This document shows positions 27,001 through 30,000 of a DNA stretch of 64,000 nucleotides, in pieces. The position numbers are program-made. Numbering within the stretch: position 1 is the first letter of the stretch; the number at the start of each line of letters is the position of its first letter. Source of the stretch: Escherichia coli (GTDB lineage: Bacteria; Pseudomonadota; Gammaproteobacteria; Enterobacterales; Enterobacteriaceae); the NCBI RefSeq assembly GCF_030013595.1, contig NZ_CP122768.1. The stretch is one strand, 5' to 3'.

Positions 27001-30000
27001 CGTGCGCCACAACCGTCCTCCGCATCCTGTCATACGCGTAAAACAGCCAGCGCTGACGTGATTTAGCACCGACGTAGCCCCACTGTTCGTCCATTTCAGC
27101 GCAGACAATCACATCACTGCCCGGTTGTATGCGCGAGGTTACCGACTGCGGCCTGAGTTTTTTAAGTGGCGGAAAATCGTGTTGAGGCCAACGCCAATAA
27201 TGCGTGCACTGGCGCGACATCCGACGCCATTCATGGCCATATCAATGATTTTCTGGTGCGTACCGGGCTGAGAGGCGGCGTAAGTGAACTGTAGTTGCCA
27301 TGTTTTACGGCAGTGAGAGCAGAGATAGCGCTGATGTCCGGCGGTGCTTTTGCCGTTACGCACCACCCCGTCAGTAGCTGAACAGGAGGGACAGCTGATA
27401 GAAACAGAAGCCACTGGAGCACCTCAAAAACACCATCATACACTAAATCAGTAAGTTGGCAGCATCACCAACAGAAGCATCGATAAAAGTTGACTTATTT
27501 CTGATACTCAGTGGCCTGGCCCTTCCTTGTTCAATATACCTGACAAAAACAATCACACTAAAATACACATCCATATCATTCTGGAAAAAACCTCTTTTCT
27601 GGTCTTATGGTATATATCATTTTCATCTTGTTTATATAATGACATGTATAGTTTTAGCAATACCTTCTGCAATTATCGTTTTATTCTTTCACTTTTATCA
27701 AAACATCACCAGAAACTGGAAGTGACAACCGCAATAATGAACATAAAAAGGCAAATCAGAATGGCAGTAAATCAATAAAGTACCATTTCATATGAATCAT
27801 CAGAAAAACGGTGGACGCGACATCCAGCACGAGGCAAAACACAGCAACAAAATAAGCCGGATATCGCGCCCTGTACTTTTCTAACTCAACTCCCGGCATT
27901 GTGCAAGTTTTAATCGCAGGTGGATTCAGAGCCACGCCCCCATTGATTCAGCCTGAAGACACGTATATCCTTGGAGAAAGCAGGAATCTCATTGCTGTGA
28001 AATTCCTTACAGAATCTTCAGCCCCATTTTATGGGGCTTTTTTTGGTGCCCCCACGCTGTTACCACACTTTCGGGATGCGAATAAAAAAGCCCACAGTTT
28101 TTACACTGCGGACTTTTGTTTTTTCTTTGTGATTTGTGTGCAAGGGTGCGACTTTCGACCGAACCTTTGGCAACCGGATAGCGGGGACTGTTGTCCCCGC
28201 TGCGGTTTCTTACGGTTTACACTGCAAGAACGCCGCAATTTCCGACCACATGAAGCTTACCCTGAATTCACACGGTGATGCGTGTAACACCCAGACGGTC
28301 AGCAACATGGTCAGGCATAACATGCCCACAATGATCGTTTTTTGCGGCATAGCACTTGCTCCTTTTACAGAGAGGCGCTAACCTTCCACTTGCTGAAGGT
28401 AGATGGTCAGGGCCTCGGGTTAACGTTTAAGTTGACTCGGGGCCTTTCCACATCCGGCCTTCAGGTAATCCTTCCAGCCGTCAGCCGAAAGGCACCCGCG
28501 CGTAATGTACTGGTTTTCAGAGAGGTCCGCAATCTTCCGGTGACGAGATCATCTGCACACGCCCCGGTGGGACGGGCTAACGGTATATTCAGGTGCAGGA
28601 TCTCTCTGTCTGGTGCGTTTTTAAATTGTCAAACGCACCCTGGCGGCAAAATCAGCCACCTTTTTTCGCATCAACAAAACGCCCAAAACGCTGGGTAAAG
28701 CGTGCAACATTACCTTCTGAAGCGACAGTTCTCAGTTTACCTGTATAAAACGGATGCGACTTAGAAGAAACGTCAATTGTAACATATGGGTAAGTTACAC
28801 CATCCAGTTCAATTACCCGGTCAGTTTTGATCGTCGAACCGATCCTGAAGTACTCATCAATACTGGTATCGTGAAATACTACTGTACGGTATTCCGGATG
28901 GATATTCGGTTTCACAACAGTTTTCCCCCTTTAAGTGAAAATTCCGCATAAAGGTACATATTCAGACGGTCAGATTCAACTGTCTGTTCTTATAACCTCA
29001 CTCTCTTTCAGTATTACAATATGTTATATAATTATAAACTGGACTTCCCGAAAAAATCCATTAAATAAGAAGCGAGCCGTTGCGGAGGCTTGCTCTCTCC
29101 TTTAACCTCATGTGCAATATCCGTAACGCGCTCACATAAATCATCATCTGATAATATAACAACACCCATTATTTTATTCTGACCTAAAAACTTCTTATGA
29201 AATAAACGTTTACCCGACGTATCTGATCCCGCTGTTTTTACCTGTATCCTTTAACATACTTGAGAAGCCCGCTGAAAAAATATACCGTAAAGGCGGTTCT
29301 CTGTCTTCCATAAACCTGTCGGATAAGAAGGGCATTAAATGAAAACCAAAAAAGTTATGATGATTGCACTGGTCAGCTCTGCGCTGGCTCTTTCAGGATG
29401 TGGAGCCATGGGCACAGCGATCAAAAAACGAAATCTGGAAGTAAAAACCCAGATGAGTGAAACCTGAGGTAGCCTGAGTTTAACGGACACTCCTTCCTGA
29501 AATAGAATGGCATCAGAAGGAGCTAATAATGAGCAGAAAAACCCAACGTTACTCTAAAGAGTTCAAAGCCGAAGCTGTCAGAACGGTTCTTGAAAATCAA
29601 CTTTCGATCAGTGAAGGCGCTTCCCGATTATCTCTTCCTGAAGGCACTTTAGGACAATGGGTTACCGCCGCCAGAAAAGGGCTCGGTACTCCTGGTTCCC
29701 GCACGGTGGCTGAACTGGAATCTGAAATTCTGCAACTGCGTAAGGCGTTAAATGAAGCTCGCCTTGAGCGAGATATATTAAAAAAAGCAGCTGTAGATTC
29801 AATCTGTCAATGCAACACCCCTTTCAATTATCTCTTTCACTGCCCGCGACGGTATCGGTTATCAGTTTGACCTGCTGGCTAACGGTGAAACCGTACTGCG
29901 TGATGCATCCGGCGAAAAACGCATCAAGGGTGAAAAAGACGGTCGTATGCTCATGAATGTTGGCCTGAATGCGGAAATTCGCGACAACATCCGCTTCGGT

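Follow-up and report, generated by a model that had tools for sequence, protein, structure and literature searches.

We analyzed a stretch of 64,000 nucleotides of Escherichia coli DNA (assembly GCF_030013595.1, contig NZ_CP122768.1; hereafter, the window), which is an SpLE1/OI-43/48-type island (ter-iha-ure) of Shiga-toxin-producing E. coli, and focused on an intrinsic terminator lying on its plus strand between a membrane-protein operon disrupted by IS1 and a hok-like gene. Our preferred reading, held with about even confidence, is that a separate short non-coding RNA, some 67 nt long and unreported so far, most likely has its 3' end at this hairpin. A fuller proposal, to which we commit slightly more tentatively, is that the locus would be an unreported gene for a trans-acting small RNA (sRNA) of about 67 nt belonging to the SpLE1/OI-43/48 element family, with its own promoter and with a sequence that is identical base for base across the lineages compared. 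Four parts of this proposal are established, namely, the terminator itself, the lack of a conserved open reading frame (ORF), an invariant sequence block, and conserved promoter hexamers. The elements of the candidate are as follows.

27943-27971, plus strand: predicted sigma-70-type promoter, composed of TTGATT (27943-27948), a 17-nt spacer, and TATCCT (27966-27971).
27978-28044, plus strand: candidate sRNA of about 67 nt, its start placed from the -10 hexamer and its end from the U-tract.
27982-28007, plus strand: hairpin 1, AGGAAU...AUUCCU with an inner UCAU/GUGA stem and a UGCU loop, present in both the minimum-free-energy and the centroid fold.
28008-28019, plus strand: 12-nt A/U-rich linker, UACAGAAUCUUC, unpaired in the centroid fold and invariant across the lineages.
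28020-28044, plus strand: intrinsic terminator, made up of an 8-bp stem with a loop of 3 nt (28020-28038) and a T-tract that extends to 28044.

Terminator, invariant block, and predicted promoter

The stem-loop of the terminator reads AGCCCCAT-TTT-ATGGGGCT (28020-28038, plus strand), with a perfect stem containing five G-C pairs and an energy of -12.2 kcal/mol. It thus has the defining structure of an intrinsic terminator, a G+C-rich stem-loop with a U-tract directly 3' of it. The original prediction had placed the terminator at 28020-28046 with a run of seven T; the hairpin was confirmed, while the T count and the end coordinate were off by a trivial one or two bases, the tract consisting of six T at 28039-28044 (seven with the closing stem T at 28038) followed by GG. 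Relatives carry seven or eight T (eight in lineage C). Comparable sites, defined as a perfect 8-bp stem with at least five G-C pairs and at least six T among the next seven bases, numbered three in the 64-kb window versus a mean of 0.01 in 100 shuffles, and a looser scan of 3 kb returned 10 terminator-like sites versus 3.1 expected. Judged by these features, the segment 28020-28044 would act as a Rho-independent terminator in the cell.

The exact 22-mer AGCCCCATTTTATGGGGCTTTT from this terminator was scanned in 100,044 species genomes and gave 45 matches, 44 of them in organisms unrelated to E. coli (Flavobacteriia, SUP05, Vibrio, and others). The match in Escherichia albertii was aligned and had unrelated flanks, and the other 44 were judged unrelated by organism alone. 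The 22-mer seems to be a generic terminator sequence that has apparently arisen many times, and the scan is therefore uninformative on the distribution of the candidate.

Diverged copies of the locus were collected by two routes, through homologs of the neighboring 223-amino-acid (aa) membrane protein (80-86% identical), which is independent of the candidate sequence, and by searching metagenomes with a 21-nt DNA pattern. The resulting comparison comprised four lineages, all of them E. coli-type elements and at least one a recombinant mosaic. Between the upstream ORF and hok, the alignment has 490 non-coding columns, 17% of them variable, and the longest invariant run in this stretch was 27984-28037 plus the T-tract (permutation p=0.002). 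The invariant block (27984-28044) takes in 36 nt upstream of the stem, showing that conservation exceeds the needs of a bare terminator. Variable columns stand on both sides of it, 7 of 13 just upstream and 14 of 36 downstream, between the two terminators of the convergent units; the region separating the block from EcOnc40, an RNA encoded on the opposite strand, is variable as well (27873-27983). Overall, the flanking DNA differs by 15-30% among lineages sharing an identical candidate block.

According to the original prediction, the only ORF overlapping the terminator reads through it in antisense to the hok-like gene. This ORF (27901-28278, plus strand) indeed spans the terminator and is antisense to the hok coding sequence (CDS; 28350-28210, minus strand). 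In lineages B and C, this ORF and two further ones, 27792-27884 (plus strand) and 27756-27935 (minus strand), are disrupted by insertions or deletions of 1-2 nt, indicating that the region is non-coding. As far as can be read from the alignment, the comparative evidence favors a discrete non-coding unit.

A promoter search upstream of the terminator, which the original prediction had named as a check, pointed to a conserved sigma-70-like site at 27943-27971, about 50 nt before the hairpin. TTGATT-N17-TATCCT is the sole plus-strand promoter-like site in 27780-28060 that is common to all lineages, the other three having TATCAT as the second hexamer. Its score is 8/12 in this lineage and 9/12 in the other three, and the spacer has been substituted while the hexamers were kept. 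This weak promoter would start an RNA near 27978, which would consist of a 5' hairpin, the 12-nt unpaired A/U-rich linker, and the terminator hairpin with its U-tail, the usual build of a trans-acting base-pairing sRNA. The candidate also has the build of Hfq-associated sRNAs, in that a terminator hairpin with a 6- to 7-nt U-tail (8 nt in lineage C) is preceded by an A/U-rich unpaired stretch, and the linker UACAGAAUCUUC may serve as a seed or as a chaperone-binding region. The RNA, transcribed divergently from EcOnc40 and convergently with the hok mRNA, would accumulate as a discrete species and act in trans on mRNAs of the host or of the element. A second role of the terminator is likely: being the last one on the plus strand before hok, it would stop residual read-through from the upstream operon and thereby shield hok from antisense transcription.

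The E. coli intergenic screens of 2001-2002 relied on a conserved block and a sigma-70-like promoter located 50-200 nt before a Rho-independent terminator, with no ORF. The orphan-terminator sRNA genes found in this way have the same signature as the candidate; however, those were confirmed by Northern blotting, whereas the candidate is known from sequence within one element family of one species.

Expression record, target search, and alternative readings

The neighboring features against which the candidate has to be weighed are the following.

25893-26564, plus strand: 223-aa membrane protein, first gene of a two-gene operon.
26609-27725, plus strand: 113-aa multi-pass membrane ORF split by IS1, second gene of the operon, intact in IS1-free genomes.
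26702-27469: IS1 (768 bp), with visible ends and an 8-bp target duplication, AACAGAAG.
27803-27872, minus strand: EcOnc40, divergent from the candidate.
28084-28497, minus strand: hok mRNA, convergent with the candidate, with its CDS at 28350-28210 and a terminator hairpin at 28113-28090 followed by T6.
28398-28450, plus strand: Sok-like antitoxin RNA, EcOnc44.

The claim of a small RNA beside hok, made in the original prediction, was supported in one respect, by the conserved non-coding block and the promoter, but not in another, since no transcript was found in the Hfq cross-linking and analysis of cDNA (Hfq-CRAC) data, in the cross-linking, ligation, and sequencing of hybrids (CLASH) data, or in the Hücker 2017 supplement. 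Several observations weigh against an sRNA gene. The 63 orphan Hfq-CRAC peaks reported for strain Sakai (Tree et al. 2014 [PMC4104026], Table S2) do not include the candidate, although EcOnc40, about 150 nt to one side, and EcOnc44, about 350 nt to the other, are on this list. Likewise, the RNase E-CLASH tables (Waters et al. 2017 [PMC5286369]) contain no hybrids at its position (old coordinates ~1397461-1397531); these Hfq-CRAC and CLASH lists are thresholded and cover one or two growth conditions, so that absence from them is no proof. The Hücker 2017 supplement, which covers intergenic RNA-seq and Ribo-seq of Sakai, has no entry for the candidate either. At 8/12, the promoter in this lineage falls under the threshold of a standard scan, and the fold of the whole RNA is unremarkable (z=-1.3). 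Support for hairpin 1 is weak because its two outermost pairs are lost in the other lineages, leaving four outer pairs, and because the block is invariant, no covariation backs this hairpin. Finally, the comparison consists of only four lineages, all E. coli and partly recombinant, and is confined to one mobile-element family.

Other records gave a similar picture. The ProQ-EHEC paper has no entry at the strand and position of the candidate, and searches of full-text literature by sequence and by locus tags returned no match, the 96 EDL933 candidates of Han 2017 (Table S3) lying outside this comparison. In an Rfam search of 25000-31000, the sole models matched at E<=1 were STAXI and the hok leader ("sok"), neither of which overlaps the candidate, and no paralog of the candidate was found in the window.

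The search for targets brought up no exact complement of at least 11 nt in the window besides the candidate's own antisense. The best imperfect duplex, of about 30 bp and -32.4 kcal/mol with many G-U pairs, is formed with 25079-25046 (minus strand), a site where an AAGGAG Shine-Dalgarno sequence is found together with an ATG-TAG start-stop and the GTG at which a 36-aa ORF starts. The integrase-domain gene of the element follows about 200 nt downstream of this site in lineage C; the site is kept in lineages A and C and missing in B. A weaker duplex (-25.9 kcal/mol) is formed within the TraG_N gene in lineages B and C, a gene that is absent from this window. The energy of -32.4 kcal/mol lies within the smooth tail of the distribution and is no outlier. 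As a further point against the candidate, the search yielded no convincing target.

The main alternative, which includes the read-through from the IS1-disrupted gene that the original prediction gave as its refutation, is that the hairpin is merely the operon terminator, or backstop, of the membrane genes, the 295-nt tail being a 3' untranslated region and any short species a processing product; in that case, the site would be ordinary genome punctuation. We consider this alternative rather unlikely. The IS1-disrupted gene named in the original prediction proved to be real, lying on the plus strand and ending at 27725; this 113-aa membrane ORF is the nearest credible plus-strand CDS and stops 295 nt before the terminator. 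The operon genes share the strand of the hairpin, and no canonical plus-strand terminator is present between 27725 and 28020. The EcOnc40 hairpin, which transcription from the operon reaches first and which has an A-tract on one side and a T-tract on the other, resembles a bidirectional terminator and, as a point in favor of an sRNA, could terminate part of the upstream-operon transcription near 27885. Read on the plus strand, however, its U-tract is 5 nt away from the stem, and termination there is therefore likely to be leaky. Facing terminator pairs are also the normal separation of convergent units, and a non-sRNA structure would agree with the absence of the candidate from the Hfq-CRAC and CLASH lists. 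Nevertheless, an operon terminator leaves unexplained why the 36 nt preceding the stem show no variation, in contrast to the 13 nt next to them and the 36 nt downstream, and why promoter-like hexamers are conserved at the right distance around a variable spacer. Moreover, it would be unusual for an untranslated tail of 295 nt to traverse another RNA gene in antisense. The backstop role is plausible with or without an sRNA, since leakage at the EcOnc40 hairpin is likely.

It is improbable that the block is conserved as a DNA site, e.g., for CRP, or as the 5' portion of an extended minus-strand EcOnc40 precursor, in which case the terminator would be incidental or a safeguard. CRP-like half-sites do occur inside the block (TGTGA-N6-TTACA at 27996-28011), but about 0.5 matches of this kind would arise by chance in the 128 kb that the two strands comprise (an estimate), and the right half-site is without the key C. 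As for a precursor, the 5' end of EcOnc40 is unmapped, Table S2 of Tree et al. 2014 has no Northern result for it, and a minus-strand TAAAAT hexamer is present in the hairpin loop. However, the -35 region of this putative minus-strand promoter is not conserved, and 27873-27983, which a precursor would have to cross, is variable. Both forms of this explanation also face the fact that a perfect hairpin followed by seven or eight T (closing stem T counted) is kept in the plus orientation in every lineage.

A second antisense regulator of hok, either Sok-like or directed against the 3' end, would agree with a location near hok and with transcription toward it, but the candidate stops about 39 nt short of the 3' end of the hok mRNA, with no overlap between the two, no complementarity of at least 11 nt is present in the window, the actual Sok-like RNA is EcOnc44 (28398-28450), and the block is missing from other hok loci; without overlap and complementarity, such a role is effectively refuted.

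EcOnc40, the hok locus, and comparison with known RNAs

EcOnc40 and EcOnc44 are Hfq-associated RNAs of strain Sakai reported in the supplements of Tree et al. 2014 (PMC4104026) and Waters et al. 2017 (PMC5286369), the coordinates of which refer to an earlier version of the genome, with a shift of about 144-156 bases. For both RNAs, the reads of Waters et al. and the Table S2 peak of Tree et al. map to the positions listed above. Association of EcOnc40 with Hfq and RNase E has been shown experimentally (PMC4104026; PMC5286369). EcOnc40 lies within the interval singled out by the original prediction (27780-28210), on the strand opposite to the candidate, and folds into a hairpin of 16 bp (-30.9 kcal/mol) that has a U5 tail and a loop rich in G and U; in lineage B, two of its G-U pairs turn into Watson-Crick pairs. 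Like the candidate, EcOnc40 is a small non-coding unit of the same intergenic region and is highly conserved in the same lineages. Unlike the candidate, it is encoded on the opposite strand with its own long hairpin and U5 tail and is not ended by the terminator at 28020. The loops of the two share the octamer UUGCUGUG, which is found in the apex of hairpin 1 (27992-27999, plus strand) and in the EcOnc40 loop (27840-27847, minus strand), with a chance of about 0.06. A hydrophobic minus-strand ORF of 47-59 aa over EcOnc40 was considered as a small protein and rejected, since a 2-nt indel frameshifts it in the other lineages.

The hok-like CDS matches Pfam HOK_GEF with 25.7 bits (cut-off, 22) and is called a Hok/Gef family protein by the Prokaryotic Genome Annotation Pipeline (PGAP) in other genomes. 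The Rfam hok-leader model ("sok") matches 28497-28339 (minus strand), and the 5' end of the hok mRNA pairs with a 3' segment (-35.9 kcal/mol), a fold-back typical of hok mRNAs. The terminator at 28113-28090 with its T6 places the end of the mRNA near 28084, and its stem stays paired in relatives through wobble and compensatory changes. The 3' ends of the candidate and of the hok mRNA are therefore about 39 nt apart, with their terminators facing each other. Other E. coli hok loci match the 3' end of hok only and not the invariant block, which therefore does not belong to the hok/sok module itself.

EcOnc44 is the true antisense partner of this hok gene. Like the candidate, this Sok RNA is a short RNA encoded at the same locus on the strand opposite hok; however, Sok overlaps the hok/mok leader in antisense, whereas the candidate lies beyond the 3' end of the hok mRNA and has no complementarity to it. 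In the CLASH table, EcOnc44 forms hybrids with EcOnc53, an RNA encoded in prophage Sp5, which we infer to be the Sok homolog of that prophage. Placing hok, Sok/EcOnc44, and EcOnc40 precisely relative to one another improves the annotation of the locus.

A validated sRNA of enterohemorrhagic E. coli (EHEC) is encoded elsewhere in the window.

2329-2256, minus strand: Esr41 (EcOnc14, RF02676), matching the published expression construct but with a T8 instead of a T7 tail.

Esr41 was our first lead for the identity of the candidate, which was rejected because the published Esr41 maps to this position. The two resemble each other in being intergenic in SpLE1/OI-43/48, about 70 nt long, and ended by a GC-rich hairpin with a long U-tail, but they are unrelated in sequence and lie about 25.7 kb apart. 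In contrast to the candidate, Esr41 appears in both the Hfq-CRAC and the CLASH data, and chuA, cirA, and bfr have been validated as its targets. It controls iron uptake, colicin sensitivity, motility, and expression of the virulence genes of the LEE (locus of enterocyte effacement), and island-encoded sRNAs of EHEC rewire core regulation. The candidate, a member of no named family, would be classed with Esr41 and similar sRNAs encoded in islands.

If the sRNA reading is correct, the candidate would be the fourth RNA, with EcOnc40, Sok/EcOnc44, and the hok mRNA, in an RNA-dense corner of 0.7 kb that is present in Shiga-toxin-producing strains of O157, O26, O103, O111, and O145. If expressed, it would represent an additional island regulator overlooked by Hfq-based surveys, perhaps because it is condition specific or Hfq independent.

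Island setting and distribution

The interval of the original prediction is present at 100% identity in O157:H7 Sakai, where it is part of SpLE1 (OI-43/48 in EDL933) and is flanked by ECs_1330, a type-B L31 gene, and ECs_1333, which encodes a membrane protein. The Sakai record (NC_002695.2) has no annotated feature between ECs_1330 and ECs_1333, the hok CDS included. The window is antiparallel to this record, its coordinates being converted by subtracting the window coordinate from 1425651; the candidate is thus found on the minus strand of NC_002695.2, with its start near 1397673 and its 3' end near 1397607. The segment 27480-28660 occurs at 100% identity in several hundred complete E. coli genomes, among them O26, O103, O111, O145, O157, and UMNK88. 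The candidate region as such is carried by 607 of the 5,426 complete E. coli genomes (about 11%), mostly of Shiga-toxin-producing lineages. In the plasmid collection, the sole matches were three identical copies, in records resembling chromosome fragments.

In less decayed relatives, the module is found within integrative conjugative elements that carry an integrase-domain gene and TraG_N, DnaB, and ArdC genes. A STAXI RNA motif is strongly matched at 25685-25534 (minus strand; 134 bits versus a gathering score of 40.5), which fits an integrative-conjugative-element origin of that part of the island.

In IS1-free genomes, the 223-aa membrane protein and an overlapping multi-pass membrane ORF of 113-131 aa form a plus-strand unit. 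The 113-aa ORF is intact at an IS1-free locus (L001, 5905-6246) and is annotated as a gene in relatives. It gave a sub-threshold match to the colicin E1 immunity protein family (PF03526; E=0.013, 15.8 bits versus a cut-off of 25). The 223-aa protein has no Pfam match, and its relatives number 8 among 5.8 billion proteins.

On its other side, hok is adjoined in the island by a gene for a type-B ribosomal protein L31 (YkgM-like; 28652-28915, minus strand). No ykgO-like partner ORF is present downstream of this gene, and L31 is kept in the intact conjugative-element relatives.

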